Shown here in pieces: positions 1-19,572 of a stretch of 64,000 bases of DNA (positions are counted from its first letter, which is position 1; the number at the start of each line of letters is the position of its first letter). The stretch lies in assembly GCA_040005235.1 (NCBI GenBank), contig JBDTZG010000013.1, positions 32,001 through 96,000 of the forward strand, written 5' to 3'. Source of the DNA: Acidobacteriota bacterium. Lineage in GTDB: Bacteria > Acidobacteriota > Thermoanaerobaculia > Multivoradales > UBA5704. A model generated the notes under the pieces. That model had not been told where the DNA came from, ran no database searches, and was given only the letters and a program-made list of their open reading frames with translations. The translations under genes were made by a program, and so were the position numbers.

Positions 1-2575
1 GGACGCCGACGCAGCTTTGGTCTGCGGCAAGGTCTGGAACCTGCTCGGATTCACCCTGCTCGGCCAAGGCAACATCAAGGACGCCCGCCGCTACATCGAG
101 CAAGCCGTGGAGCTCGCCCGCTGCTGGCCGGCAGACCCGAGGTTCCCTTATTCCTCTTGGGCGCGGAATCTGGCGAACGTCGAGGCGAAGGCGGGCGACT
201 TTCCGACCGCACGCCGGCTCTACCTCGAGCTTTTGGCCCTGCCGATTTCCGACGGCTTGGAGATCGCGAGGTTGAACATCCTGCTCGGATTCATCGAATC
301 GAGCAGCGGCAACGTCGACGACGCGCGCCGCTACCTCGACCAGGCGGAGGGCTTCGCCTTCGACGATCCCCGCATCGGCTGGCAGGTCTGGCACGAGCGC
401 TGCGCCATCTCCTCGCGCCTCGGTTTGCTCGACGAGGCGCTCGACCAGTGCGCCATCGCGTTGATTAGGGCCAAGTCGGATCCCGACTGGGAGGCCCAGA
501 CGCTCAATCTTCTCGGCAGCTTGAGCTCCGATCTCGGTTCGTACGAGTCGGCCCTCCAGAGCTTCGCGCGTTCGCGGGAGATTTTCCGCCAACTCAACCT
601 CGCCGGGCCCGAAAGCAATTCTCTGTGCAACTTCGGCTTCGGCCAGGCGCAGCTGGGCCGGTTCGACGAGGCGCAGAAGAGCTTTGCCGAGGCCGCGAAA
701 CTCGCCGCCCGAGTGGGCAATTCCGGCAGCGAAGGGTTCGCGCTCTATTTGCAGGGCCGGGTGGCGCTCCAGCGCACGGCCCACGGATCGAGAGCCGAGG
801 TCCTGGCCGCCCACGCGGTCCTTACAAAGGCGCTCGACCGCATGAGCCAGGCCGGTGACGTTCCCGGACAGGCCGACGCCCAGCTGGAGCTGGCCGGAGC
901 CGAAACTCGCCTGGGCGACTTCCCCGGCGCGCTCGGACGGCTCGACCTGGCGTTCGCCCTGGCGCAGAAGCTGGAGGATCCGGTACGCCGCGCGGCGGTC
1001 CTCACTCGCCGTGCCGAGATCCTCGCGGAGAGCGGCAAGCTGGAGCCCGGGCTCGCGGCGATCCAAGACGCCGTGCGCGAGATCGACGACCTTCGCACGC
1101 GGGTGGCAAGCCCTCCGCTGCGGGCCACCTTTTTCGCCAGCCGGCGCCGCACCTTCGAGCTGCAAATCGAAATCCTGCTGCGCCTCGCGAAGCTTCATCC
1201 CGATTCCGGCTTCGAGATCCAAGCGTTCGAAGCGAGCGAAGCGGCCCGGGCGCGCAGCCTCCTCGACCTGTTGGTCGAGCGGAGCCTCGCCCAAGGTCGA
1301 AACGCGAATCCGGTACTTGCGGGTCTGGTTCGCCAGGGCCTCGATCTCGACCGCGAGCTGAACCTTGCACAGGCACAGTCGAGAACCGCTCCGGCGGAGC
1401 CGAAACTTCCCGAGCGCGAGCGCCTCGACAGAAGGATCGCGACCCTCGAAGCGAATCTGCAGGAGGTCGAGCGCCGCTTACGCATAACCGATCCGCGATA
1501 CGCCGCGGTGCGCTATGCCCGGGCGCTCGGAGCGCGGGACATCCAGCGCGAGCTGAGCGACCACGAGATCCTGCTCGAGTACGTTTTCGCCGCCGACGCG
1601 GCCTACCTCTTCGCGGTCACTCGAGAGCAGGTCCGCGCCCTGCCGCTGGACCAACCCGCGATCGCGAAGATCCTGCCGCCCTTTCGCGCGCGGCTCGCCG
1701 GAGGACAAGGCCTGGAGCAAGCCCTGCGGATCGACGCCCGGAAACTCTACGATCTCCTGCTCGCTCCGGCTGCGGAGCTACTCACCGGCAAAGACCGTCT
1801 GATCGTGGCCGCCGACGGCGATCTCTATTTCCTTCCTTTCGAGGTTCTCATTTCCCCTGCGCCGCCGGGAGCGTCTCCTTCCTACCTGATCGAAACCAAG
1901 ACGATCTCCTACACCCCCTCCGCCAGCGTGCTCGCGCGGCTCGGGGAGCTTCCGGTGGGCGACGCGTTCGAATTCGTCGGCGTCGCGGTCGGCGATCCGA
2001 AGGATGGCTCGGCCGTTCTCGCGAAGGTCGACGACGAGGTGAGGGGCATTGCGGCGCTCTACCCGGCGGAGCGGAGCCGCCTGCTGCTGGACGGTGCCGC
2101 GACCGAAGCGGGTCTCTCGGGATTGCACGGCGCATTGTCCGGCGCGCGGCGCATCCATTTCGCGACCCACGGCTATCTGTCGGACGATCCGCAGCGGATG
2201 GGCCTGCGCCTCGCGCCCGATCCGTCCGGAGGGGACGGACTGCTGCAAGCTTTCGAGGTTCTGCGCCTCGATCTTCACGCGGACCTCGTCGTGCTCTCCG
2301 CCTGCGAAACGGCGGTCGGCCAACAGGTTCCCGGAGAAGGGGTGATCGGCCTGCCGCGCGCCTTCTTCTACGCCGGAGCGCGCAGCGTCGCGGTCAGTCT
2401 GTGGCGCGCGCCGGACGATGCCACCGCGCGGCTCATGACCTCGTTCTACGGCCATCTGCAACAGGGCCAGGACAAGGCGGAAGCGCTGCGCCAGGCCAAG
2501 CTCGAACAGATTCGCGACCGGCAGCGCCCGTTCCTCTGGGCACCGTTCGTTCTCGTCGGGTCGCCGATACGGTAA
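1..2575 (+). CDS. TPR-repeat CHAT-domain (caspase-like, HetF-associated) protease; 5' end lies outside the window
   Basis: Frame is open from the window start. Many TPR-like helical repeats precede a CHAT domain with intact His/Cys motifs 'HFATHG' and 'VLSACET' and the C-terminal 'WAPFVLVG'. Confidence 0.93.
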   Translation, partial: DADAALVCGKVWNLLGFTLLGQGNIKDARRYIEQAVELARCWPADPRFPYSSWARNLANVEAKAGDFPTARRLYLELLALPISDGLEIARLNILLGFIESSSGNVDDARRYLDQAEGFAFDDPRIGWQVWHERCAISSRLGLLDEALDQCAIALIRAKSDPDWEAQTLNLLGSLSSDLGSYESALQSFARSREIFRQLNLAGPESNSLCNFGFGQAQLGRFDEAQKSFAEAAKLAARVGNSGSEGFALYLQGRVALQRTAHGSRAEVLAAHAVLTKALDRMSQAGDVPGQADAQLELAGAETRLGDFPGALGRLDLAFALAQKLEDPVRRAAVLTRRAEILAESGKLEPGLAAIQDAVREIDDLRTRVASPPLRATFFASRRRTFELQIEILLRLAKLHPDSGFEIQAFEASEAARARSLLDLLVERSLAQGRNANPVLAGLVRQGLDLDRELNLAQAQSRTAPAEPKLPERERLDRRIATLEANLQEVERRLRITDPRYAAVRYARALGARDIQRELSDHEILLEYVFAADAAYLFAVTREQVRALPLDQPAIAKILPPFRARLAGGQGLEQALRIDARKLYDLLLAPAAELLTGKDRLIVAADGDLYFLPFEVLISPAPPGASPSYLIETKTISYTPSASVLARLGELPVGDAFEFVGVAVGDPKDGSAVLAKVDDEVRGIAALYPAERSRLLLDGAATEAGLSGLHGALSGARRIHFATHGYLSDDPQRMGLRLAPDPSGGDGLLQAFEVLRLDLHADLVVLSACETAVGQQVPGEGVIGLPRAFFYAGARSVAVSLWRAPDDATARLMTSFYGHLQQGQDKAEALRQAKLEQIRDRQRPFLWAPFVLVGSPIR

Positions 2576-6760: not shown

Positions 6761-9700
6761 CTACCCCTGCACGAAGTACCCGAAGTACTGCCGACTCCAC
6801 CGCTGGACGGTGACCGTGGGGTTGCCGCAGGCGGGCTCCGCCCGCAGCACGCGCACCTGCGCCAAGCCGATCGGGCAGGTCTGCGGGATCACCACGTCGA
6901 GGTGTTTGCCGTCGGTGCCGATGGCGGTGGTTACGGCCTGCTCGCAGATTGCGCCGCCGGCAAAGCGGAACTGGACTTTGAGCACGCCGGTCAGCTCGAT
7001 GCCTTCGAGCCGGATCTTCGCGCGGCGGATCGAGCCTACGCGCGGCCAGATTTCGGTCACCACCGGGCGGCCGGAGTCGGCCGGGCGGTCGTTGCGCCAG
7101 AAGGTGACGCGGTCGCCGAACGGGTCGTTGGCGAGATCGAGGTCGCCGTCCTCGTCGATGTCCAAGGCGACCAGATCCTGCGAGTCGGTCGAGCGGCGGT
7201 ATTGGGTGAGGATCGTCGGGGTGATGTCGGTGAACGTTCCCGGCGGCGGCGAATCGGCCGAGGTGATCAGGCCGTCGCCGTTTGAATCGACTCCGTTGTT
7301 CATCAGCACACGTGGCAGGTCGTTCACCACCTGGTAGATCAGGTCGAGGTCGCCGTCGCCGTCGAGGTCGGCGAACGCGGGGAACATCGCCTGGTCCATG
7401 CCCGGCGTCGGGTTGCCGGCCGGGTCGGTGGGCGCCGTGTGGATCACCGGCGAGAGCGAGCCGAGGGGCATGCGGGTCTGGAATTCGTCGACCATTCCGC
7501 CGGTGGTGGCGATTTTGTTGATCAACAGCCAGGGGTAGTTGGTCCGGGCGCCTGCGGCGTAGTGGGCGATCGCGACGTCGGAATCGCCGTCGTTGTCCAG
7601 GTCGCCCTGGGCGATGCCGAACGAGCCGCAGGAGATGTAGGACGTGTCGCCCAAAACCTGATCGGTACAGGCGGCGGGCAGCACCGTCGCCGACGATTCG
7701 GTGAGGGTGCCTTTGGGGGTTCCGACCCCGTTTAAGAACAGCAGGTCTTTCGTCTGGGAGACGCTCGTCATCTCGGCCGCGGTCTTGGCGAAGCCGAGGG
7801 TGGTGAACAGGTCGAGCGCGCCGTTGTTGTCGAAATCGGCGAGCAGGTCCATCCCCAGGCCGCGGTTCCAGGCCGGATCGTAGGTGCCGGACGTCGTGCG
7901 CATCTGGGTCGGGGCTACGTCCTTGAACCAGTGAGCGCCGGCGCCGGCCGTGCCGATGACGTTCTTCAAATAGCGCCAGCCGAAGGCGTACGTGCCGATC
8001 GGGTTGGGAAAGAGCGGCGGGGCGACCATGGGCACCGGCCCCGAATAGCCGCTCGGCAGGATCTCGAACAGATGGACGATCGCGTCGACGTCGCCGTCGT
8101 TGTCGAGATCGCCCGCGACCGCCCGGTCACCGATGCCCGGCAGCGGCAGCGAGGTGCGACCGTTCGGGTCGATCCTCGCGTCCTCGGTCGTGCAGGACGA
8201 GGCGGTGTAGAGCGAATCGAAGCCGAAAGTGCCGCTGCCGGAATTGACCAGGACGATCGAATCCGGACTCGTGTCGACGCAATACGGCCAGGCCGGCGTG
8301 CGCTGCGAGGCGAGCAGCGCGTCCACGTCACCGTCCCGGTCGAAATCGGCGAACACGCCGTCTTCCATCCCCTGCGGGATCTGCCGGCCGCGCTTGTTGC
8401 TGGTCTGGCCCGTGCCGCCGAAGGGAGAAGCGTAGTCCTCGTGCTCCGCTTCGATCGCCCCCGCGATGCTGCCGACCAGGTAGTTGTAACCGCGCGAGGT
8501 TTGGAGCGCGTCAAGCGCGCCGTCGCCGTTCCAATCTGCGAAGTCGAAGCCATAGCCATGCTCGGTGCCCGGCATGGTCTGGTAGCTCTTGAAGCCGATG
8601 AAGCCGCCACTGAAATCCCACGGCTGGCCGGCTGTGGCGCCGGGGCCGTTGCCGAGGTTCGAGTGGAGATCGGGCAGCACGCCGCTCCAGCGGTTGCCGT
8701 TCCCCTCGAACAGATCCTTGAAGCCGTTGTTGTCGAAGTCGGCGACCGCCACGGTCTTCGCCGACTGCGTGGGAAAGGCCGTGTACGGCTGCAAGGTGGG
8801 AAACCCGGAGGTCCAATTCGCCTTGTTGGTCATCACGTAGACGCGGCTCGAGGCGCCGGTGAAGGTGTCGTGCTTGAGCAGGTCGCGTTGCGAAACGATG
8901 ACCAGGTCGAGCCAGCCGTCGGGCGCGTTGCCGGAAAGCGTCGGCGGATTCGTCGCCGGCCCGAACAGGTCGACCAGCAGCACCTGCTGGGTGAGCGGTG
9001 CCGTCACCACGTGCTCGGTGGGAAAATTCGGCGCGTTCGTGTCGAGGATCGGGTTCATGAAATCGGTGAACGAATCGAGCGTTCCGCCGAACGAGACGTC
9101 GTTGGCGAAGATCTCCATCAGGTGATCCTCGGCAGGGGTGAGCACGAGGTTCTGGCTGAAGCCGTCCGAACCGGCATTGCCCAGCACGATCTCGGGCCAG
9201 CCGTCTCTGTTCAGATCGCCGAGGGCGACGCTCCGGCTGTCGGATTGCACTCCCGAGGCGAGGGGCACCACCTTGAAGTTGCCGCTGCCGTTGTTGATCA
9301 GAACGTAGTCTTCGCTTTCGGCGCCGCAACCGGCGCTGGCGCAACGGTTGGCGACCGCTAGGTCGAGATCGCCATCCTGGTCGAGATCGATCGCCGCCAC
9401 GTCGTTGGTCGCGCGGGAAAGCTCGCCCGGAATCCGGGTCGCCGTCTCGTCCTTGAAGCATCCCGTGCCGTCGTTGATCAAGAGGACATTGGTGGCGCCC
9501 TTATAGTTGTCGCCTTGACGGCCGATGTAGAGGTCGGCCCAGCCGTCGCCGTTTAGATCCTTGTACACGACGCCCGAGCTATTGCCGGCGGTGGCCGAGA
9601 CGGGGATGCGCGGTCCGGTCGAACAGGTATCCTGCGAGATGTCGCCCCAACGGCCGGTCGCCGGATCGCGGCGCATCAGCAGGTCGGTCTGCGCTTGGGC

Positions 9701-10375
9701 CGCGTTCGCCTGCTCGACCGGATCGGGATCGAGATCGCCAAGCCCGTAGCCGATGCCGGCGGTGACGTACAGGTCGTCGCAGACGGTATCGAGCGGATCG
9801 GCGCAACCGAAGGCCCCGCGAGTCGCCGAGACGAACAGGAACGAGAAGCCGCTCCACGGAACCGGCGGGTCGGTCTGAACGTTCTGGTAGTGGCCGTCGA
9901 TCGACTGGAAGAAGGTCGGTTTTCCGTAGCGGACGGTCTTGGTCGGATCGATCAGCGCGTCGCTGTAGTTGACGAACAGCTGGAGACCTTTCTTTTCCAG
10001 CGACGCTTCCATCAGCTTGCGGGTCCCGCCAGCCGCGGGGGCGATCCCCTCGGGCGGATCGAACTGTGCGACGTTGAACAGCAGCACGTCGGTGTAGGCG
10101 GCCGGTTGCTGGCTCCCCAGGCCGATCAGATCGCGCGCCAGACTGAACACCGTGTCGCCCGGATCTTCGTAGAACTGGTGCGCGCCCCAGACGTACTCGC
10201 CCGTGTCGCGCTCGTAGTTCCAGGGTGTGAGTTTGGGCGGCGGCGGATTGATCGGGATCGGCTCGAGGCAGATCGCGGGACCGATCACCACCTGGGCTAC
10301 CGCGGGCCAAGGAAGGAGAGACGCGAGAAGGGCCGCCCCAAGGGCAACCCGGCGGACGGAACGTGATTTCGACAT
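6761..10375 (-). CDS. Large secreted FG-GAP/VCBS-repeat (beta-propeller) protein with a C-terminal IPT/TIG-like domain
   Basis: Signal peptide (MSKSRSVRRVALGAALLASLLPWPAVAQ). More than 10 DxDxDG-type repeats (DLNGDGWADL, DLDQDGDLDL, DFDNNGFKDL). ATG 10375 follows GGAG. Confidence 0.88.
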   Translation of the reverse strand: MSKSRSVRRVALGAALLASLLPWPAVAQVVIGPAICLEPIPINPPPPKLTPWNYERDTGEYVWGAHQFYEDPGDTVFSLARDLIGLGSQQPAAYTDVLLFNVAQFDPPEGIAPAAGGTRKLMEASLEKKGLQLFVNYSDALIDPTKTVRYGKPTFFQSIDGHYQNVQTDPPVPWSGFSFLFVSATRGAFGCADPLDTVCDDLYVTAGIGYGLGDLDPDPVEQANAAQAQTDLLMRRDPATGRWGDISQDTCSTGPRIPVSATAGNSSGVVYKDLNGDGWADLYIGRQGDNYKGATNVLLINDGTGCFKDETATRIPGELSRATNDVAAIDLDQDGDLDLAVANRCASAGCGAESEDYVLINNGSGNFKVVPLASGVQSDSRSVALGDLNRDGWPEIVLGNAGSDGFSQNLVLTPAEDHLMEIFANDVSFGGTLDSFTDFMNPILDTNAPNFPTEHVVTAPLTQQVLLVDLFGPATNPPTLSGNAPDGWLDLVIVSQRDLLKHDTFTGASSRVYVMTNKANWTSGFPTLQPYTAFPTQSAKTVAVADFDNNGFKDLFEGNGNRWSGVLPDLHSNLGNGPGATAGQPWDFSGGFIGFKSYQTMPGTEHGYGFDFADWNGDGALDALQTSRGYNYLVGSIAGAIEAEHEDYASPFGGTGQTSNKRGRQIPQGMEDGVFADFDRDGDVDALLASQRTPAWPYCVDTSPDSIVLVNSGSGTFGFDSLYTASSCTTEDARIDPNGRTSLPLPGIGDRAVAGDLDNDGDVDAIVHLFEILPSGYSGPVPMVAPPLFPNPIGTYAFGWRYLKNVIGTAGAGAHWFKDVAPTQMRTTSGTYDPAWNRGLGMDLLADFDNNGALDLFTTLGFAKTAAEMTSVSQTKDLLFLNGVGTPKGTLTESSATVLPAACTDQVLGDTSYISCGSFGIAQGDLDNDGDSDVAIAHYAAGARTNYPWLLINKIATTGGMVDEFQTRMPLGSLSPVIHTAPTDPAGNPTPGMDQAMFPAFADLDGDGDLDLIYQVVNDLPRVLMNNGVDSNGDGLITSADSPPPGTFTDITPTILTQYRRSTDSQDLVALDIDEDGDLDLANDPFGDRVTFWRNDRPADSGRPVVTEIWPRVGSIRRAKIRLEGIELTGVLKVQFRFAGGAICEQAVTTAIGTDGKHLDVVIPQTCPIGLAQVRVLRAEPACGNPTVTVQRWSRQYFGYFVQG

Positions 10376-10379
10376 GGCA

Positions 10380-10434
10380 TTCTCCGATCGGGGCGCTCGC
10401 CTCGGACCTTCCGAGGTTCCCCCTGATCGGAGAA
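10380..10434 (-). promoter_or_regulatory. Stem-loop that would sequester the Shine-Dalgarno of the VCBS gene
   Basis: On the minus strand UUCUCCGAUC pairs with GAUCGGAGAA (contains GGAG, ends 4 nt before the AUG). Inner hairpin CCUCGGA-AGG-UCCGAGG. Confidence 0.5.
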
Positions 10435-10469
10435 GCGGATTCGGCGGGGAAAGATGACGAAATTCGCGG

Positions 10470-11225
10470 TTACGACCGCGCGAGATTCGAAAGAATCTGC
10501 CCGGCTTCCTCCAGCCGACCGAGATCGCGCGGCAGCTCCAGGGCGTAGGCGGGCACGACGCTCGCCGCCGCGACGCAGGCTTCGAGGTGGGCGGCCAGGA
10601 GGTCCGGGCCGTAGCGCCGCGCGGCAACCGTTTGGCCGAGCAGCAAGCGGGCGGTCTCGGCCGGGCGCAGGCGGGTAAGCCGCGGCGCGGGCGCCGTCCC
10701 CGGTCCGGCGAGAGCGATCAGCGCGGCGACCGGCGCGGGCGCTCGATACCGGCGCGCCGGGTCGAGCTTGAGCTGCGGATAGTCGAGATGCGCGATGAGC
10801 CGATCTTCTGCCAGCTCGAACGGCAGAAGGTCGTCGGCGGCCCGCTCCCATTCGGGGTACTCCAGAGCCGCCAGCGTCGACTTGCCCCGTCCCGATTCCC
10901 CGAGGAAAACGAACAGGCGGCCGTGGACGAATACCGCGCTCGCATGCAGCGCCCAGATCGCACGGGCCGCGAGCAGCAGGAGGATCGGCGGCCCGAGCGC
11001 CAGCTCCTCGAAATGATCGGGGTCCAGGTCCGCGACTTCGAGCGGCGGCGCGATCAACGATCGGCCGTTCCGCGGCAGCCGCCCACGCGCCTCGGGCGGA
11101 CCGAGGCAGAAGAGCGGCCGATCGGTCCAGAAACGTCGCCCGGCGAGGGTATAGCCGAACGCCTCTTCGCCCTGGCCCAGCCTGAGGATCGGCTCCCCCT
11201 TGCGGGGTCGAACCCGGGCGTACAT
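10470..11225 (-). CDS. HPr-kinase-like P-loop kinase (type found in lasso-peptide clusters)
   Basis: 'LHASAV', Walker A 'GESGRGKST' and 'ADD'. Start overlaps the stop of the C25 gene (TGATG). Confidence 0.82.
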   Translation of the reverse strand: MYARVRPRKGEPILRLGQGEEAFGYTLAGRRFWTDRPLFCLGPPEARGRLPRNGRSLIAPPLEVADLDPDHFEELALGPPILLLLAARAIWALHASAVFVHGRLFVFLGESGRGKSTLAALEYPEWERAADDLLPFELAEDRLIAHLDYPQLKLDPARRYRAPAPVAALIALAGPGTAPAPRLTRLRPAETARLLLGQTVAARRYGPDLLAAHLEACVAAASVVPAYALELPRDLGRLEEAGQILSNLARS

Positions 11226-14200
11226 CAGGGCCGGAGCTTCATCGCGGGATCGCCGAGCAGCGTCCAGCCGAGCAGGGCGTCGCGCAGATCACTCGGACCC
11301 CCGGCGATCGCCGCGATCGTCCGCTTGGCCTGGAGCAGCGCGTCGCCGATCGTGGTACCGGGGACCATCAGCCGGGCGAGCAGCGCCGGCCCCAGCAGTT
11401 GGTCCGATTCGGTGCGCGAGAGCGTCGCCGAGCCGATTACCGCGGCGGCCCCCTGGGGACCGGCGAGCAGCAGCCGGTGCGCCAGAGTGTCCACCTCGGG
11501 CGCCACGTGGTAGGTGTTCCAGCAGCCCCACTGGACGACCAGCGAAGGGCTGCCGACGTTGTTGAGCGCCGCCCCGTCGGCCGCCGAGAACAGCCCCCGG
11601 AAGCTCCAGACCGTCGGGCCGGAATGGCCGACGTAATGGACCAGCGCGGGGCCTTGATCGAACGCCGCGATCAGCTGGGATCTTGCAGCCGCGGCCCCCA
11701 GGTCGTCGACGTAGGCCCGGACCAGGGGCCAGGCGGCGGGCACCTGGGAGATCAGCTGATCGCTGATCGAGCTGAACGTCCGGGCGACCTCGGCTTCCGT
11801 GCCGTCCGCCGCGTCCGCCGCGAACAGCGCGCCGGTCCGAGAGCCGTCGAAGGCGAGGGTCTTGGCGATCAACTGGCGCAGCTCCGAGGCGGTGCGCGCC
11901 GGGAAACGGCCGAGCGCCAGATCCTGCACCCCGTCGCCGTCGAGGTCGCCGTAGACCGAGTCGGCCGGGGTGAAGCGGATCAGGTCGTCGGTCTGCGCGT
12001 AGGGGGTCGGGATCAGGCTCACCGAGCCGATACCCAAATGGTCGAAATAGTCGTAGGTGTCCGCTCCGACCAGCAGCAGATAGCGCGCGCCGAGCTGTTG
12101 GGCGGCGTAGCGGACGTAGTCGCGGATCGCCTGCGGGTCGATCTCGCCGCCGGAATAGGCGGCGTAGAGATCGAGCACGTCGACCAACTTGACTCTGTGT
12201 CCTTCGCTCTCGCGCGCCGCGATCAGCGGCGCGAGCTCCCCGGCGAGGCTAGGATGGGTGACGATCAGGTAATCGGCGCGCCGGTTGCCCAGATCGGCGG
12301 GCGCTTCGCGCGCCGGCTGGATCGCCGGGTGGAGCATCGCCGAAGCGGTCGAAAGATCGACCGCGCCGACTTTGGTCGCCGCTCCGGGGATCGAGAACGC
12401 GGCGCGGAAGCCGCCGCCGAAATTGTCGATCGCCACGTTCGAAAGCCGCGAGGCGCCGCCCTTGGCGTAGACCACGAGGTCGTTGGCGCCGAGCCCCTCG
12501 ACCTCGATCCTGCCCGGCGCTCCCGGGAAGCTCAGCCGGTCGTTCCGCGCGACGAAGCGACGGGGATAGCTCACGGCGTAGCGATCGACGTGCACCAGGT
12601 CGAAGGCGTTGCCGGTGTCGCCGGGCAGACGGACCTCCAACGTGTTCGTCCCTTCGAACAGCAGCCCGGGCGGCAGGGGCAGGTCGTAGCTTTTGGCCGT
12701 CAGGCCGTCGAACCGCTCGTCGACGAGCTGCGTGCCGTCGAGCGAAATCTGCAGGTGATGATCCGGCGTCGAAGGCCAGTTCGTGACGCCCCAAAGATCC
12801 ACGTGCAGCCGCGCCTCGGTGCTGGCCGGAGCGTCCACTTCGATCGGAAAGCTCTTGGCCGTCGGGCGCCCTTGAGCGAGCACCGGCGCCTCGTACCAGG
12901 GATCGCCGTTCGGCGAGGCGAAGCTGTAGACCAAGTCGCGGTCGATCGCCAGCACTTCCCCGTAGGAGGCGACCGAAGCGCCTTGCGGCGTACCGTCCTC
13001 CACTAATACCCGCGACGGCCGACGGCCGACGGCGAGGCGATAGACCCGAGACCGGGTGTAGAGGCTGCCCGCGACCGCCTCGCCGCGGAATTCGACGAAC
13101 GACCCGGGACCGAAGATCTCCGAACCTTTTTCGCCCCCTTCTACGTAGATCGGCACCTCCTTGCCGGTCCGCGCCGCGGTGAGCGAGAGGCGGGCGAGGT
13201 TGGCTCCGGCAAAGTCGATTCCCGCGGCGCGAAGCTCTTCGTAGGTCACGCGGTAGAGGCCGTCGGCATCGACCCGCAGCTCGGCGGCGGGAACGCTCGC
13301 GACGCGGCTTTGCGCCCGGCGGTCGTCCTCGGCCGAGGCGGCGATCTCGGCATGCACAGTCGCCCAGTCGATCGGCTCGGCGGCCGAGGGCCGGCCGTAA
13401 GGCCGATCCAGCGCGAACGGTCCGTGGCGGGTCCGACCGCCGTCGAGGCCCGCGTCTTCGAGCAGCAGCTCGGTCCACCCGCCGTCGGGAAGAACCCGTC
13501 GATAACTCTGCGGCGCCAGCCGGTCGAGCGAACGGGCGGGCAGCAGCTTCGGCGTCAGCGGTTGCCACGCGTCCTTCGGCCCCTTGCGGCCGAGCAGCGC
13601 ATAGCCGACGGTCGAGGTCTCGGTTTCGGTGGTCCATTCGACCTCGATCCCGCGGGTGGTCCGGGCGGCGGAAAACGACGCCACGCTCACGGGGAGCGTG
13701 CTGACCGGGATCTGATAGTCCTCGACCTCGCCGCTGGTCGCGACGCCGACCGGCGTGGTCACCTCGGCCGCGGTGTACGAAGTCCGGAACCGGGCGTAGG
13801 TCGCGGTCGTCCCTCCGGCGTTGCTCGGCACAGCGCTCCAGGTGACGTTGAACGCGGTGGGGGTCGAGGTATTGGCCGGCACGGTCACGGTGCCGGAGAT
13901 CTCGTTGGCGTCGAGGAAATCGCCGTCGCGGTTCCAGTCGATGTAGCCGACCAGCGAGCCTGCCGTGGTGGTCGAAAGATTCACCGCGGTGACGCTCACC
14001 GTATAGCTCGTCGAAGGAGAAGCGTAGGCGGGGAACGAAGCGAGGCCGTCCTCGTCGTCGACGCCGCCCACCTGGGTCGTGTCGTCGGTGGTGGCCGCGG
14101 CGCCCGCCTGGCCGTCCGCCTCGCCGTCGGGCGGGTTGGTGCCGAGATAGAGGGTCCGGTCGCCGATCGCGTGGCGCGCGCCGCCCGCGAGCAGCGTGCC

Positions 14201-15430
14201 GTAGCTGTTCGGCGCGTCGCCGTAGTCGTAACCACAGAAGACGAAGTCGCTGATCCCGACGACCATGAACTGGTTTTCGTTTGCCGGATCGTCGCCCTGG
14301 GTGTAGTTCAGGGTGATCGAGGAGACCGCGCCGGTAAACGCCACGTCCAGGTTTCCGGTCGTCGTGTTCTGCGCCGCCGACGCGTCCCCTTCGGCGAGAT
14401 CGCCGGCCAGTTGCGCGTTGCCCCCCGCCACCGCCGCGATGGTGTAGGGAACCCGGTTGCCGGACGGTCCGGTCCCCACCACCTCGATCTGGTCCTCCCA
14501 GCTCCCGCCCGTGATGTCGACGTCCAGGAAGGTGAAGCGTAGATCCCGCACCGGACGGGAAAAACTGAGCGTCGAAACCAGGCCCACCCCTTCGTTGTCC
14601 TGGGTTCCGGCCGCCGCCGCCGCATCCATCGACAGCGAGTAATAGCCGGTGTGGTTGCCGTTGATCGTCGTGCGGGTGAGCACCCCGTTGCCGAGGGTGC
14701 CCGCGGCTGTTGCGCCCGTGCCCGCAAAATCGCTGGTCGCCCCTTGGGTGATGGTCAGATCGCCCACCGTCGCGTTGGTAAACGGCACGACGCTGCCGTT
14801 CGCACCCCAGTCGTAGGTCACGGTCCCGGTGCAAACGGAGGTCGCCGCCGCGGTGCTCACCAGCGTGAGGTACGCCCGATTGAAGGTGCCGTTGGTCGCG
14901 TTGTTGTTGATGTCGCAGATGTTGAGCGTCCAGGTCCCGCTGCTCGCCACGCCGGAAAAAGCGGTGTCGATGTTGGCAACCGGCACGATCCGATTGAAGA
15001 AAGGCGCCGCGGTCGGATCGACGTCGGTGTCGGCGAGCGTCCCTTCGGTGTTGGACGAAAGAAGGATGTCGAAGTTGTCCTGCGTATCGCCGCCCCCGCC
15101 CGCCGTGCCCGCGATGAGCTGCAGGGCGGTGCCGCTCGGCGACACTAGAGTGAGCCGTACGTCGCCGCGGTTGGCGTGGTCGATGTTGAAACCGAGACCG
15201 ACCCGAGACACCGAAAACGAGTCCGAGACGGAAAACGTCCGCACCAGCGGGGTGGCGCAGCCCGCGGCCCCCGCCGCCGCGGCGGAAAAGCTCACGGCTC
15301 CGGACGTGGCGTTGGTGTAGGTATAGGTCAGGGCCTCGGCCGGACCGTCGATCAGGCCGAAAGCACCGAGGAGAATCGTCGCGGAAGTGAGACCGCGGAA
15401 GGTTGCGAAGCGGGAAAATCGGATCGACAT
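11225..15430 (-). CDS. Secreted C25 (gingipain-like) cysteine peptidase with proprotein-convertase P domain and GEVED domain
   Basis: Signal peptide; P domain 'HANRGDVRLTLVSPSGT...GTWTLNICD'; 'YIDWNRDGDF...SGEVEDY'; C25 region 'DYLIVTH', 'YLLLVG', 'ALGRFP' with catalytic 'YVGHSG' and 'WGCWN'; ends 'LLGDPA'. Confidence 0.9.
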   Translation of the reverse strand: MSIRFSRFATFRGLTSATILLGAFGLIDGPAEALTYTYTNATSGAVSFSAAAAGAAGCATPLVRTFSVSDSFSVSRVGLGFNIDHANRGDVRLTLVSPSGTALQLIAGTAGGGGDTQDNFDILLSSNTEGTLADTDVDPTAAPFFNRIVPVANIDTAFSGVASSGTWTLNICDINNNATNGTFNRAYLTLVSTAAATSVCTGTVTYDWGANGSVVPFTNATVGDLTITQGATSDFAGTGATAAGTLGNGVLTRTTINGNHTGYYSLSMDAAAAAGTQDNEGVGLVSTLSFSRPVRDLRFTFLDVDITGGSWEDQIEVVGTGPSGNRVPYTIAAVAGGNAQLAGDLAEGDASAAQNTTTGNLDVAFTGAVSSITLNYTQGDDPANENQFMVVGISDFVFCGYDYGDAPNSYGTLLAGGARHAIGDRTLYLGTNPPDGEADGQAGAAATTDDTTQVGGVDDEDGLASFPAYASPSTSYTVSVTAVNLSTTTAGSLVGYIDWNRDGDFLDANEISGTVTVPANTSTPTAFNVTWSAVPSNAGGTTATYARFRTSYTAAEVTTPVGVATSGEVEDYQIPVSTLPVSVASFSAARTTRGIEVEWTTETETSTVGYALLGRKGPKDAWQPLTPKLLPARSLDRLAPQSYRRVLPDGGWTELLLEDAGLDGGRTRHGPFALDRPYGRPSAAEPIDWATVHAEIAASAEDDRRAQSRVASVPAAELRVDADGLYRVTYEELRAAGIDFAGANLARLSLTAARTGKEVPIYVEGGEKGSEIFGPGSFVEFRGEAVAGSLYTRSRVYRLAVGRRPSRVLVEDGTPQGASVASYGEVLAIDRDLVYSFASPNGDPWYEAPVLAQGRPTAKSFPIEVDAPASTEARLHVDLWGVTNWPSTPDHHLQISLDGTQLVDERFDGLTAKSYDLPLPPGLLFEGTNTLEVRLPGDTGNAFDLVHVDRYAVSYPRRFVARNDRLSFPGAPGRIEVEGLGANDLVVYAKGGASRLSNVAIDNFGGGFRAAFSIPGAATKVGAVDLSTASAMLHPAIQPAREAPADLGNRRADYLIVTHPSLAGELAPLIAARESEGHRVKLVDVLDLYAAYSGGEIDPQAIRDYVRYAAQQLGARYLLLVGADTYDYFDHLGIGSVSLIPTPYAQTDDLIRFTPADSVYGDLDGDGVQDLALGRFPARTASELRQLIAKTLAFDGSRTGALFAADAADGTEAEVARTFSSISDQLISQVPAAWPLVRAYVDDLGAAAARSQLIAAFDQGPALVHYVGHSGPTVWSFRGLFSAADGAALNNVGSPSLVVQWGCWNTYHVAPEVDTLAHRLLLAGPQGAAAVIGSATLSRTESDQLLGPALLARLMVPGTTIGDALLQAKRTIAAIAGGPSDLRDALLGWTLLGDPAMKLRP

Positions 15431-15454
15431 GTCATCACCTCTTCAAAAGATCCC

Positions 15455-15631
15455 TCACTGTGCCTTGAAAATAGCGGGATTGCCGCTTTCGCCGACACCG
15501 GGCGACGGCCCGAGGGTGAACGTGCGCAAGTCGCCATGAACGATCAATCGCGGCGTTTCATACCGGCGCTTGGGCCCCGGGGGGGTGGGTTCGGCAGGTG
15601 GCAAAAACACAGAAAACACCAGGTCGGGCAT
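15455..15631 (-). CDS. Lasso-peptide-like RiPP precursor (58 aa; predicted core GPSPGVGESGNPAIFKAQ)
   Basis: MPDLVFSVFLPPAEPTPPGPKRRYETPRLIVHGDLRTFTL|GPSPGVGESGNPAIFKAQ. Leader has YxxPxL, G-D, and Thr at -2; core has Gly1 and Glu8. SD GAGGAAGG. Starts 7 nt after the cyclase stop. Confidence 0.88.
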   Translation of the reverse strand: MPDLVFSVFLPPAEPTPPGPKRRYETPRLIVHGDLRTFTLGPSPGVGESGNPAIFKAQ

Positions 15632-15638
15632 ACCTTCC

Positions 15639-17540
15639 TCACTCTCTCCGGCAGGCCGAGATCTCCCGCTGGGGCACTTCGAAAGCTCCCCGCACTCCGC
15701 TATCGAAATACTTTTCAGGCGATCGACGCTGCCAGATTTCGAACGAAAACGCCAACCAGACCAGCAAACCCGACAAGCCGCATCGCCGCTCCCGCCAGCC
15801 GGTCTCCACCCACTCGGGCAAGAGATAATCTCGCCACGCGGCGTTGGGGTTAAGCAAAATCGCGGCCACCTCGCCGGTTGGATCTGCGTAGACGCCGGAA
15901 ACGAAGAGATCCTCAAACGTCGCCTTGTCCTGCCGGTCGAGGATCGAGCCCGGCAGCAGGCCCGACAGGGCTTGCCGCAAGATGGGGCGCGAATTCCCCT
16001 GGACGCCGAGGTCCTCGGCCGGCAAACCCAAAAACAGCTCGATCACCCGTCGATCGCGCATCGGGTGCCGCACCTCGATCCCCAGGGGGTCGCAGTAGTA
16101 ACGCTCGATCGAGAGCCCGTGGCCGTTCTGCGCGCCGAGCAAGCTGCGCGCCTGCGCCGGGCGCGGGTACTCGGCCGCCCAGCCGTCGCGCTCGATCGGC
16201 TCGGGCAGGAGAGCGAGCGAGCTTTCGGTCAGCCAGGCAAAGCGCTCCGCTTTACGCCGGGCGGCCCGCTCCAGCCGCAATCGATCCGGGAGCAGCGCGC
16301 CGAGCGCCTGCCGTAGCGCGCCGTCGCCGGCGCGGAACCGGCGCCACAGCTCGCCCGCGGCGGCCCCAAAACGCCCGGCCCGCAACGTTTCCTTCAATCG
16401 GTACTCGGCGCCGCCGTAGAGCTGATCTCCGCACAGGCCGGACAGAAGCACGGGGCTGCCAATCCGCTGGGCGGCCTCGTAGGCCCGCTGGTGGAAGTGC
16501 CGGTAGGCGTTTTGCTCCGGCGTCGCCGGATGGGTCGGCCAAGACGCGAGATCGGCGAGCGGCAGCTCGTCGTCGCACGGCAGGCGGTGCAGCTCGAGAT
16601 TCAGCGCGCGCTCCAGCACCGACAGGTGCCGGCTTTCGTCGGCCCGCGGATGGCGGGGAAAAACCCAAGAGAGCGCCCGCAGCCGATCCCCCGCGGGAAG
16701 CGCCCGCTGCGCCAAGGCGGCAATCGGAGCCGAATCGAGGCCGCCGGACAAGAGGACCGCGGGCCGGCCTGCCGATCGAAGGCGGCAGCGGACGGCGAGG
16801 TCGAGACGGTGGCGCAGCTCTTCGGCGCGCTCCTCCGGCCGCCTCTTCAGAAGCCCGGCGGCCGGCCGCGGCCGGGAAAGCCTCTCGCTGCGCGCGCGGT
16901 CATCGCGCACGATCAGGATCTCGCCCGGCTCAAGTTGCCGCACGCCCTGGTAGAAAGTACGACCGGGCTCAGGGTCTTCGAGCGAAAAGTACGCCGCGAC
17001 CCGGGTCCGGTCGAGCGCCATCTCGCGGCCCAGCGTCGCCGCCACGGCCCCTTCTTCGGAAGCCGCGAGCAACCGGCGATCGTCGAGCGCCACGGCGAGG
17101 TTGCGGCCGCCCAGGGCGTCGCGGGCCAGGATCGCCTCCCGCCGCGTCGCATCCCAGATCGCGATCGCGAACGGCCCGAGCAGGCGTTCGAATCCGGCGA
17201 TCCCCCAAGCGGCAAAGACGGCGGCGGCGAGCCGCGCGTCGCTTACCTTCCGAAGCGGACCCGGAGAATCCGGCAACGCGCGCCACAGCGTCTCCCGGTC
17301 GTCGATCCGGCCGTCGAAAGCCAGCCATGCTCGCCAATGTCCGGGAACCGGTATCGGCTGGTGCTCCCCCAACTCTTCCGGCGTGGTCCAGAAATGAAGG
17401 TGGCCCAGAACGCCACCGGCACCCCCGGCGGTGTCCAGGCCCTCCCGACCCCGATGAGCCATGTGGCCCAGCAGCCGCTCAAGGATTGCGGGAAGAAGCT
17501 CCGCGCCCTGGCGTGCCATCGCGAGACCGAGCGCGCTCAT
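15639..17540 (-). CDS. Asparagine-synthetase-like lasso peptide cyclase (C protein)
   Basis: Ntn-like N-domain begins MSALG (catalytic Cys absent), 'FDGRIDDR', 'ARDALG', ATP-PPase motif 'LSGGLDS', 'SGLCGDQL'. Adjacent to the precursor gene. Confidence 0.88.
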   Translation of the reverse strand: MSALGLAMARQGAELLPAILERLLGHMAHRGREGLDTAGGAGGVLGHLHFWTTPEELGEHQPIPVPGHWRAWLAFDGRIDDRETLWRALPDSPGPLRKVSDARLAAAVFAAWGIAGFERLLGPFAIAIWDATRREAILARDALGGRNLAVALDDRRLLAASEEGAVAATLGREMALDRTRVAAYFSLEDPEPGRTFYQGVRQLEPGEILIVRDDRARSERLSRPRPAAGLLKRRPEERAEELRHRLDLAVRCRLRSAGRPAVLLSGGLDSAPIAALAQRALPAGDRLRALSWVFPRHPRADESRHLSVLERALNLELHRLPCDDELPLADLASWPTHPATPEQNAYRHFHQRAYEAAQRIGSPVLLSGLCGDQLYGGAEYRLKETLRAGRFGAAAGELWRRFRAGDGALRQALGALLPDRLRLERAARRKAERFAWLTESSLALLPEPIERDGWAAEYPRPAQARSLLGAQNGHGLSIERYYCDPLGIEVRHPMRDRRVIELFLGLPAEDLGVQGNSRPILRQALSGLLPGSILDRQDKATFEDLFVSGVYADPTGEVAAILLNPNAAWRDYLLPEWVETGWRERRCGLSGLLVWLAFSFEIWQRRSPEKYFDSGVRGAFEVPQREISACRRE

Positions 17541-17775
17541 TTGATTTTACCTCTTCGCGTATCGTCATTTTCTCCCCAACGAAGAATCGATCATAGCAGA
17601 TTCCCCGCCCGCCCTTTTCCGCCCGCCCAAGATTTCCTCACCCAAAAGGAGAGAAATCCCCACCCTGAAGCGAGCCACCCTCCGGCGAGGGGGGTCCCAC
17701 GCCTAATGAGGTTCTTGAGGAATCCCGGCGAAATTAACCTTCACCCATCAACGCCGCTTACCCCAGGAGGACGCC

Positions 17776-19572
17776 ATGAGACTCAGGATGCTCCAGCCGG
17801 CCGTCAACTCTTCGCCGAATTCACACGGCGCGACCCTCGCCGCGAGGGTGCGGAAAACCCTTTCGGCCACCGCTCTCTTCTGTACGCTCGGAGCCCTGCT
17901 CCTGGCAGGCGCCGTCGGGGCCCAGATGGGAACCGGCCCGTTCGCCGCCTTTCCCTCGCAGAGCACCGTGGACTCGCGCTTCCTCTCCTTCGGTTGCAGC
18001 GGGCCCGAGACGATGGAGCAAGCCACGCGGATTTCGCTCGCCGCTCCGGAGTCCAACGTCTCCTTCGAGCTCAACGTGTTCGACGGCGACACTGCGCGGG
18101 TCGACGCGGAGAGCAACCGGCACTGGGATCTCGGCAGCCGGCAGGTGAAGCTCTCCCTCTACGCCGATCCCCTCCGCTCGGGCGACACCTCGCCGGAAAA
18201 CCTGATCGGCGAATGGTTCGGCAACGATGAGAACGCCACCGGCGGCGTTCTTTGGACGGCGTCCGCCGCTACCATGCCGGACAACGACTGGTGGGCCGTT
18301 TCGATCACCAACGCAACTCTCGCCCAGGCTCCCAGCGGCAACTACTTTTACAACCTGGTGATTCAAACCGACGGCGATTGCGCCTCGAACGAGCAGCTGG
18401 AGAGCAACCTCAAGCTCGCGGTCTCCTCGCCGGTGACTTTCCAACTTTCTCGCTTCAGCCTGGTCGGTGAGATCTGCCAATCGACGGACGACGGAGCCCT
18501 CGTTCATCCCGGCTCCTCGGCGGTGACTCCGCAGAACGCCGATCCAGTGGCGGTGACCTACGACGGCAGCTTCGAGCTCTTCTTCCCCGTGGCCGCCGCC
18601 CAGGCCGAGCTGCGCCTGTTCGACGGCGACTTCGATTTCGGCACCGACGCGCTGACCGCGAGTCCTTCGGAAGTCGGATTGGACGCCTGCGTCGACACCG
18701 ACGATCCGGACACCGACTCGGGCTATGTGGACTTTCCGTTTCTCACCCCCGGCGCCTTGGCAGAGGGAGCCGCGGGTCCAGGTTCGCCTGCAGACGACAA
18801 CTCTTCCGACGACCTTCGCCGGGGAGAGCCGGGCGACCCCAACGGCATCGGCTGCGTCCGCTATGAAGTGACCGACCCGGAAAGCAACGTCTATTCCAAC
18901 CCCAACCCCTCCGGCACCCAGGAATGGGAGCAGTTCCTGATTGCCGGCTCTTCCTCGGCTTACACCGCAAGCGCCGACCAGGTCTATGGCGGCGCCACCC
19001 TGCCCGGCGGGATTTGGACGATCAAGATCGTCGGCTTGGACATGTCGAATCCAGTGCTCTGGAACGCGTCCTCGGTCTGCTCGACCCGACCCGCCCGCGA
19101 AGCTCTGCCCGCTGAGGATCCGAACGACGTGCCGCGGATGGCGGCCTGCCCCAACGTACCGACCTACCTGATGGGGGGATTCGTTTGGGCGGATGACGAC
19201 GGCCACGGAAAGATGGACCCCAAAGAGAAAGGAATCGCCGGTGTGTTGGTCGATCTGGTTCGCCCGAGCGATGGTGCGGTGATCGCTTCGTCCCGGACCG
19301 GCGATACGACGAACCCCAACTGGGAGTCATGCCTGGCGAACTTCCAGGCCGCCAACGTCCAGGGCCTGGCCTGCTTCGGAGTAGACATTGCAGCCGAGTA
19401 CGAAATGCGGATTGCGAAAGCCAACTTCGCAGCGGGCCAGCCGCTCTCCGGCAAGATTTCGACGACTGGCGGAGAGACCGAAATGCGCTCATTGACCGCC
19501 GGCAACTCCATGTACAGCAGCTTCGGTTACCAAGACGCCGACTTCGGCACGGTCGGACCGACCTGCCCCTGA
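17776..19572 (+). CDS. Secreted protein: unknown ~430-aa Cys/Asp-rich domain plus C-terminal SdrD-B/Cna-B-like domain
   Basis: SD AGGAGG; signal peptide; 'GFVWADDDGHGKMDPKEKGIAGVLVDL' is SdrD-B-like. Paralog of the next gene. Confidence 0.75.
   Translation: MRLRMLQPAVNSSPNSHGATLAARVRKTLSATALFCTLGALLLAGAVGAQMGTGPFAAFPSQSTVDSRFLSFGCSGPETMEQATRISLAAPESNVSFELNVFDGDTARVDAESNRHWDLGSRQVKLSLYADPLRSGDTSPENLIGEWFGNDENATGGVLWTASAATMPDNDWWAVSITNATLAQAPSGNYFYNLVIQTDGDCASNEQLESNLKLAVSSPVTFQLSRFSLVGEICQSTDDGALVHPGSSAVTPQNADPVAVTYDGSFELFFPVAAAQAELRLFDGDFDFGTDALTASPSEVGLDACVDTDDPDTDSGYVDFPFLTPGALAEGAAGPGSPADDNSSDDLRRGEPGDPNGIGCVRYEVTDPESNVYSNPNPSGTQEWEQFLIAGSSSAYTASADQVYGGATLPGGIWTIKIVGLDMSNPVLWNASSVCSTRPAREALPAEDPNDVPRMAACPNVPTYLMGGFVWADDDGHGKMDPKEKGIAGVLVDLVRPSDGAVIASSRTGDTTNPNWESCLANFQAANVQGLACFGVDIAAEYEMRIAKANFAAGQPLSGKISTTGGETEMRSLTAGNSMYSSFGYQDADFGTVGPTCP

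Follow-up and report, generated by a model that had tools for sequence, protein, structure and literature searches.

Results

Gene content of the operon

The 64,000-nt stretch analysed here (hereafter the window; contig JBDTZG010000013.1, positions 32,001 to 96,000 of the forward strand, assembly GCA_040005235.1 of a soil Acidobacteriota bacterium) carries an operon of five minus-strand genes that are arranged head to tail and tightly packed. The first gene encodes a lasso macrolactam cyclase (C; 15639..17540, 633 aa) with Asn_synthase and GATase_7 domains and the motif SGGLDS, and the second a 58-aa precursor peptide (A; 15455..15631) that matches NF033521. They are followed by a PorU/gingipain-like C25 cysteine peptidase that is predicted to be secreted (11225..15430, 1401 aa, Pfam Peptidase_C25), a P-loop kinase assigned to the HprK/PEPCK fold by the fold match of its AlphaFold2 model (K; 10470..11225, 251 aa) and, as the last gene of the operon, a secreted FG-GAP/VCBS repeat protein (6761..10375, 1204 aa; FG-GAP_3, E 1e-42). 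The gap between cyclase and precursor is 7 nt, with a GGAAGG-type ribosome site before the precursor ATG, the gap between precursor and C25 gene is 24 nt, and the kinase gene shares a single base with the stop codon of the C25 gene. The gene set, order, gaps and overlap agree in full with those described in an earlier interpretation made from the letters alone (hereafter the sequence-only reading).

The same reading had noted that the two remaining lasso maturation proteins, B1 (PqqD-like) and B2 (leader protease), as well as an ATP-binding cassette (ABC) exporter and an isopeptidase, were not recognisable in the 64 kb, and this was borne out. The operon encodes neither B1 nor B2; profile search of the window's contig (C126) gave zero matches to PF05402 or PF13471 even at E<=1, and 42 (14 + 28) further open reading frames (ORFs) of the window scanned against Pfam contained no ABC exporter and no S9 peptidase. 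An S9 prolyl-oligopeptidase-like isopeptidase of the AtxE2 type was likewise not found adjoining the cluster among the window ORFs scanned. The scan of the operon for promoters and terminators gave nothing above chance.

Precursor and cyclase

The precursor passed the profile NF033521 (lasso_leader_L3) with 20.7 bits (cut-off 19). The leader has YETPRLIVHGDLRTFTL at its end, followed by the core GPSPGVGESGNPAIFKAQ, and carries Tyr-17, Pro-14, Leu-12, Gly-8 and Thr-2. The YxxPxL leader, Thr-2, Gly1 and Glu8 identify it as a lasso precursor, for which a ring between Gly1 and Glu8 is predicted from the sequence, with Phe15 and Lys16 as likely plugs.

In the alignment (A2) of 38 homologous precursors from C25-type loci, Tyr-17, Pro-14, Leu-12, Gly-8, Thr-2 and Gly1 were invariant, and the family consensus was RKPYxxPxLxxLGDLRTLTL for the leader and GGSPGxGDSG for the core. 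The acceptor Asp/Glu was located at position 8 in 32 precursors and at position 9 in 6. Ser/Thr was present at position 3 in 36 of the 38 and, also in 36 of the 38, immediately after the acceptor residue. The core ranged from 17 to 48 residues with a variable tail, the leader and ring being conserved. A C-terminal Pro was found in 16 precursors and a C-terminal Ser in none, and no tail motif was common to the whole family; the window peptide itself ends FKAQ. In relatives the core is near-constant, GPSPG[VI]GESGNPA[IL]FK.., though the cyclases are just 68-77% identical.

The long proline-rich tails of several Chloroflexota precursors (L033, L034, L058, L065, L070 and L062) have a Pro-x-Pro-[Asp/Gly]-Gly stretch in common, which aligns with the C-terminal Pro of short precursors. 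This stretch may be a tail-processing site.

The cyclase begins with MSALG and has no Cys2, while the PP-loop motif LLSGGLDS is present; it is asparagine-synthetase-like and lacks the glutaminase Cys, as expected of a lasso cyclase. Its best NCBIfam match was the lasso cyclase model NF033535 (238 bits, under the 525-bit cut-off), and the asparagine synthase model TIGR01536 gave 154 bits (cut-off 267). In the tree the window cyclase shares a clade with cyclases that have B1 and B2 in cis and lasso precursors. The sequence-only reading had named grouping with true AsnB enzymes, together with absence of a modified peptide, as one result that would count against it, and this grouping did not occur. 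The real asparagine synthase is a separate gene on contig C59, located among glycosyltransferase genes; it was considered as a third cyclase and rejected because it is a true AsnB (TIGR01536, 350.6 bits vs 267).

C25 peptidase

The C25 protein contains a P_proprotein domain (residues 75-188), a GEVED domain (493-574) and Peptidase_C25 (PF01364, 1054-1399, E 1e-65); its middle part resembles PorU, and the catalytic domain closes the protein at the C-terminus. Its N-terminus, and likewise that of most full-length homologues, was judged signal-like by eye. Alignment with RgpB and PorU matches the catalytic His (VGH) and Cys (GC) to their counterparts, which places the protein in family C25, and the best match among solved structures was PorU (PDB 6za2, E 4e-11). 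The PorU model NF033707 matched residues 717-1399 with 127 bits, under its 420-bit cut-off, so that the protein was not classed as a PorU sortase; no search for other type IX components was made. For the S1-pocket loop, the alignment with RgpB was too poor for a reading of specificity.

After length filtering, the lasso-linked C25 set comprised 46 proteins and, in addition, a second C25 copy from L040. Their length varied from ~400 to ~3260 aa with the N-terminal part, and a C-terminal module of ~840 aa was conserved. The catalytic domain ends at most ~25 residues from the C-terminus, the exception being L041, in which ~120 residues follow. The window genome holds three full C25 copies. In the C25 tree, which broadly parallels the cyclase tree, the paralogue on contig C118 falls far outside the lasso-linked set; the second paralogue, on C86, was too divergent for the tree filter and was left out.

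Kinase and FG-GAP protein

The window kinase had zero Pfam or NCBIfam matches, and its family assignment relied on the fold search. The AlphaFold2 model (predicted local distance difference test, pLDDT, 90.7) matched PEPCK and HprK/P (1kkl, 3tqf, 2qmh) in Foldseek at E ~1e-6. The sequence-profile search against the PDB, on which the assignment did not rely, was dominated by generic P-loop matches, with HprK/P and PEPCK at E ~7e-4 only. The window kinase keeps all seven residues that are invariant in a 24-member alignment (A1), including H94, G114, K115, S116, D131 and D132; the P-loop GxGKS and the DD pair are invariant, in agreement with the HPr-kinase fold of phosphorylated lasso clusters. 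An N-domain segment of ~55 residues (A1 columns 100-160), found in most family members, is missing from kinases of the window clade. Hidden RiPP (peptide made by the ribosome and modified after translation) recognition elements (RREs) within the kinase or the cyclase were considered and rejected, there being no PqqD signal on the contig and no winged-helix element in the kinase model.

The FG-GAP protein has orthologues, 76-77% identical, behind the kinase at L018, L020 and L021 alone, and is confined to the window's closest clade.

Location of B1 and B2

The genome-wide search for PF05402 and PF13471 that the sequence-only reading had proposed was run on the window genome (6.22 Mb, 140 contigs, listed as 100% complete) and found one B1/B2 pair. 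The genome's single B2 and its single lasso-type PqqD gene belong to another lasso cluster, likewise complete in itself, on the 6.8-kb contig C80 (L016, 1023-4666, minus strand). It has the order A-C-HprK-like kinase-B1-B2, which adjoins an SdrD-like repeat protein and GroEL. The C80 B1 scored 54 bits against NF033536, under the 80-bit cut-off, and 60.1 bits against PF05402, over the cut-off; the C80 B2 scored 69.7 bits against NF033537 (cut-off 33). The C80 kinase matches TIGR04352 weakly and is 34% identical to the window kinase over 87 aa. The core of the C80 precursor begins SENGDGED and differs from the window core; both precursors have Tyr, Pro, Leu, Gly and Thr at -17, -14, -12, -8 and -2.

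The same arrangement was found in other genomes whose C25-linked loci lack B1 and B2 (B-less loci). Exactly one B2, away from the B-less locus, was present in 15 of 16 such genomes, the window genome included. The genomes of the five closest relatives each have one B2 on another contig, and in four of the five it sits in a C80-like A-C-K-B1-B2 cluster. In G004 a solitary B1-B2 pair is flanked by an SdrD_B-domain gene and GroEL, as the C80 cluster is, but has no precursor, cyclase or kinase beside it, and the only lasso-type cyclase found in this genome is the C25-linked one. As this orphan pair has its only cyclase and precursor elsewhere, it is the strongest argument for action in trans. Of ten further genomes with B-less loci that were searched, nine have a single B2, which is on a different contig or at a distance on the same chromosome; within the ~20 kb fetched around these nine, B2 was alone in four, with B1 in two, with a kinase and B1 in one, and in another cyclase-bearing cluster in two. 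On the complete 5.43-Mb chromosome of G006, C25-cyclase-precursor loci are located at 1.47 and 2.17 Mb (L042, L060), the single B2 (L108) at 3.00 Mb and PqqD matches at 0.76, 1.79 and 5.42 Mb, the scattered lasso genes lying 0.3 to 1.5 Mb apart. Whether the C80-type B2 originated from C25-type clusters was addressed with a B2 tree, in which the sequences were short, support was weak and the branches were not resolved.

Of the two options offered by the sequence-only reading, B proteins acting in trans is therefore the one supported, by the C80 pair and by the 15 genomes, and a non-canonical, B-less pathway is not, since B1 and B2 are in the genome on another contig.

Conservation of the C25 linkage

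Search for homologues gave 76 related loci, and the related genomes are all metagenome-assembled genomes (MAGs) except two chromosome-level assemblies. From the window, C80 and 81 loci, 12,530 ORFs were extracted and searched with phmmer for the cyclase and the C25 domain. The cyclase tree was built from 71 ORFs of at least 480 aa, and 20 shorter or fragmented matches were left out. It contains a 52-member clade with support 100 that includes the window and consists of Acidobacteriota and Chloroflexota. Besides the adjoining C25 gene, this clade is marked by the kinase and by a leader and ring that hardly vary. A C25 ORF was found within 3 kb of the cyclase at 45 of the 52 loci inside this clade and at none of the 19 outside. 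L019 has a partial C25 at the contig end, and at L054, L056 and L066 the flank was too short to judge. The expectation of the sequence-only reading that linkage of C25 and kinase is conserved, and likely functional, was borne out by these counts.

The commonest order in the clade is C25-C-A-K-B1-B2, and the gaps are often smaller than 100 nt. The two B genes are together in cis at 18 of 26 Chloroflexota loci and at 4 of 23 Acidobacteriota loci (22 of 52 clade loci overall). The five closest loci, from Thermoanaerobaculia and Holophagales MAGs with cyclases 50-77% identical to that of the window, have the order C-A-C25 and no B1 or B2 in cis; the kinase follows C25 in four, L019 being cut off within C25, and three of these four also have the FG-GAP gene. 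The same five-gene order occurs in L018, L020 and L021 at 65-82% identity, and L022 keeps C, A, C25 and kinase at 50-68% identity with no FG-GAP gene. The linkage was kept through rearrangement, with C25 before C or after A and on differing strands.

In the reverse test, 120 other genomes sampled from the class were searched for matches to the window C25 domain. Nine matches were at least 42% identical, and seven of them abut a cyclase (five cyclases found at E<=1e-40 and two more diverged ones that this threshold had missed); the remaining two lie in tandem in G056, where a linked copy is present as well. Identity was 28-37% for the other 55 C25 matches. C25 at E<=1e-30 was present in 42 of 121 genomes of the class, a tally that includes one unpublished genome (G119).

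Four of five sampled loci of the family are located among envelope-polysaccharide genes (Wzy_C, Bac_transf, Wzz/GNVR); no polysaccharide genes were found among the window ORFs scanned. The flanks of L050, L057, L048 and L084 hold Wzy_C ligase, Bac_transf, Wzz/GNVR tyrosine kinase, low-molecular-weight phosphatase and DegT genes, and that of L048 also a PF14907 nucleotidyltransferase.

Genomic surroundings

The operon is flanked by a convergent glycogen-phosphorylase-like gene ending at 5458 and by a divergent SdrD_B-domain gene (Pfam; 17776..19572, plus strand). The intergenic region between the cyclase and the latter gene (17541..17775) is presumed from the ORF layout to contain the operon promoter. 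SdrD_B-domain surface proteins flank both lasso loci of the genome (window 17776-19572, plus strand; L016 4868-6802, minus strand), and an SdrD_B-domain gene also adjoins the orphan B1-B2 pair of G004 (L100 6110-7243, plus strand). At 2-2575 (plus strand) the window carries a gene for TPR repeats and a CHAT domain (caspase-like protease), cut by the window start, and at 22181-23659 (minus strand) a MscS-type mechanosensitive channel fused to a C-terminal DEP domain, which is an unusual fusion.

Discussion

We propose that the five genes are a working lasso-peptide operon of canonical chemistry, served by B1 and B2 in trans from C80 and with phosphorylation of the peptide by the kinase; we give this a probability of roughly 0.75. 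The 58-aa precursor would be bound through its YxxPxL leader by the RRE protein B1 from C80. The HprK-like kinase would then probably phosphorylate a conserved core serine, Ser3 or possibly Ser9, a step for which B1 would also be needed in trans. The B2 protease from C80 would cut after Thr-Leu, and the cyclase would join Gly1 to Glu8, with Phe15 and Lys16 as likely plugs. Leader removal must precede the ATP-dependent ring closure in the cytoplasm. In the window lineage the C25 gene would have moved behind the precursor and the FG-GAP protein would have been added, B1 and B2 not being in the cluster. The C25 enzyme keeps its His/Cys pair and, judged from its sequence, most likely acts extracellularly, with the exported lasso peptide as its target or its companion; it might process or attach the peptide or be under its control, or the two might just be co-regulated.

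The closest known system is the bsf cluster of Bradymonas sediminis. In the available text of PMC10368454, this cluster resembles the present one in the split B1 and B2, the YxxPxL leader, the Gly1-Asp/Glu8 ring, the conserved Ser3 and the presence of a distant HPr-kinase-like peptide kinase, which in bsf requires B1 for its activity. It differs in having Ile at -2, where the window has Thr, and B1 and B2 within the cluster, and a C25 peptidase is not named in the parts of the description available (PMC10368454). The bsf kinase, BsfK, requires B1 for its phosphorylation of Ser3 in a lasso precursor of the Gly1-Asp8 type (PMC10368454, available text), and because of this precedent phosphorylation at Ser3 (or Ser9) is predicted here. 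Clusters of the paeninodin type in Bacillota are alike in combining lasso A, B1, B2 and C with an HprK-like kinase (as summarised in the available text of PMC10368454). Compared with these, the precursors of the window family are without a C-terminal Ser, have a different ring and are encoded with a C25 gene alongside. It is the C-terminal Ser that kinases of the paeninodin type phosphorylate. Linear polyphosphorylated peptides (PMC13381572) are a further related kind, set apart from the present clusters, which have a cyclase and a lasso core.

For the peptidase, PorU (the type IX sortase, 6za2) and the gingipains (1cvr, 4ief) are alike in the C25 domain with the aligned His/Cys pair. The window protein differs from PorU in its N-terminal domains (P_proprotein, GEVED) and in that the catalytic domain is its last, with no sorting domain behind it at the C-terminus, and its hosts are Acidobacteriota and Chloroflexota. 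In astexin-type clusters, the lasso isopeptidase AtxE2 is an S9 serine peptidase and there is no ABC exporter. The present clusters are similar in that a dedicated peptidase gene is conserved beside the lasso genes and no ABC exporter was found among the ORFs scanned, whereas the window peptidase is a cysteine enzyme of family C25 rather than a serine enzyme of S9, is very large and is predicted to be secreted.

Several points weigh against the proposed operon function. The cyclase, the kinase and the PorU-like protein are all under the curated cut-offs of their nearest NCBIfam models. That B1 and B2 most likely act in trans from the C80 pair is inferred from gene distribution only, and compatibility of the C80 B1 with the window leader is suggested by the motifs that the two leaders share. 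According to the available text of Popov et al. (PMC13381572), RREs can evolve to discriminate between co-resident precursors, and therefore cross-service of two precursors is not automatic. One 3.7-Mb MAG with a B-less locus (G013) had neither a B2 nor a PqqD match. C25 was absent at three clade loci with enough flank (L027, L053 and L069), and within 19 kb of the tandem pair of large C25 genes in G056 (L119, contig C2), 42-48% identical to the window domain, there is neither a cyclase nor a kinase nor B1/B2. The 25 neighbour ORFs scanned from five related loci, like the window ORFs scanned, gave no exporter, which leaves the peptide without an evident route to a secreted enzyme. On the technical side, the hidden Markov models (HMMs) for B1, B2 and the kinase were built in-house from first matches, the ORFs were called by our own scripts, and the trees were made with FastTree only.

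As to what the C25 enzyme does, it may trim the tail of the exported lasso peptide or, like a sortase, link the peptide to a surface polymer or protein, an option that we regard as possible and hold tentatively. The intact catalytic dyad and the PorU-like similarity over residues 717-1399 are consistent with such a role, as are the envelope-polysaccharide genes around four of the five sampled loci, the Pro-x-Pro-[Asp/Gly]-Gly stretch in the long Chloroflexota tails and the 16 precursors that end in Pro. However, a tail motif shared by all 38 precursors is lacking, the window peptide ends in FKAQ, no exporter was found among the ORFs scanned and polysaccharide genes are missing from the scanned neighbourhood of the window.

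Alternatively, the lasso peptide could be a cognate inhibitor or regulator of the co-encoded C25 enzyme, with the conserved ring contacting the catalytic domain. Staphostatins, which are encoded beside staphopains, are a comparable pairing of inhibitor and protease. In the precursor only leader and ring, and in the peptidase only the ~840-aa C-terminal module, are conserved, the linkage survives differing gene orders and strands, and the missing exporter is no obstacle for a cytoplasmic inhibitor. On the other hand, Sec substrates cross the membrane unfolded, which would leave a cytoplasmic inhibitor with no obvious target, and ring conservation is equally explained by the needs of the cyclase or the kinase. 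We consider this role rather unlikely. To the same degree we doubt that the C25 and lasso genes are just co-inherited in a surface or stress programme and co-regulated, their products making no contact. The frequency of C25 in the class (42 of 121 genomes), the three full copies in the window genome and the three clade loci without C25 would fit such co-regulation, but the linkage spans two phyla and has been kept through rearrangement with gaps often under 100 nt, the cyclase and C25 trees run parallel, and linkage to a cyclase was seen only in the C25 subfamily of at least 42% identity.

The sequence-only reading had also raised a variant that needs no B1 or B2, in which C25 would stand in for B2 in cleaving the leader, or would attach the peptide to surface proteins. 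The lack of B1 and B2 in the operon and the window, the position of C25 directly behind the precursor, and the genome G013 with neither match could be taken in its favour. PorU-type C25 enzymes act as transpeptidases, and PorU is the best solved match of the C25 protein. The use of C25 as a substitute for B1 and B2 was nevertheless not borne out: genes of the same C25 subfamily adjoin clusters in which B1 and B2 are in cis (18 of 26 loci in Chloroflexota, 4 of 23 in Acidobacteriota), one B2 is encoded elsewhere in 15 of 16 genomes, with the orphan B1-B2 pair in G004, and neither YxxPxL, the motif for B1, nor Thr-2, the motif for B2, varies in the leader. A role as leader peptidase is not supported, because the enzyme accompanies clusters with their own B2 and appears secreted; its N-terminus is signal-like by eye, yet the leader has to be removed before cyclisation in the cytoplasm. 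We judge this variant very improbable. It is also highly improbable that the operon is a decaying remnant without product, left by a lasso cluster that lost B1 and B2, as might be supposed from their absence from the cluster and from the lost N-domain segment of the kinase, since the five ORFs are intact, the same order is found in three genomes (L018, L020, L021) at 65-82% identity, the core peptide is nearly unchanged in relatives and the kinase keeps every invariant residue.

A literature search that took in few subscription journals and no supplementary tables of large lasso-mining studies gave no paper linking lasso peptides with C25, gingipain or PorU, and the widespread, C25-adjoined group of lasso clusters to which the operon of this soil Acidobacteriota bacterium belongs is apparently undescribed. 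This lasso family is spread over two phyla with few cultured members; its ring is near-invariant, and a secreted cysteine peptidase is its conserved partner. Lasso peptides are usually viewed as antibiotics or scavenging molecules; the protease partner points to other biology, possibly surface attachment, protease control or regulated turnover. As a wider suggestion, which we advance tentatively and with more doubt than confidence, PorU-like C25 enzymes would be dedicated partners of (phospho-)lasso peptides, either as a sortase displaying the peptide on the envelope or as a protease switched on or off by it, and Acidobacteriota would commonly run lasso biosynthesis from scattered genes. If this is true, such scattered acidobacterial genes escape cluster-based genome mining. 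Among the loci analysed here, rules that demand B beside C would miss most acidobacterial members (17 of 23 loci). The family also offers a natural test of how far one pair of RRE and protease can serve two different precursors.

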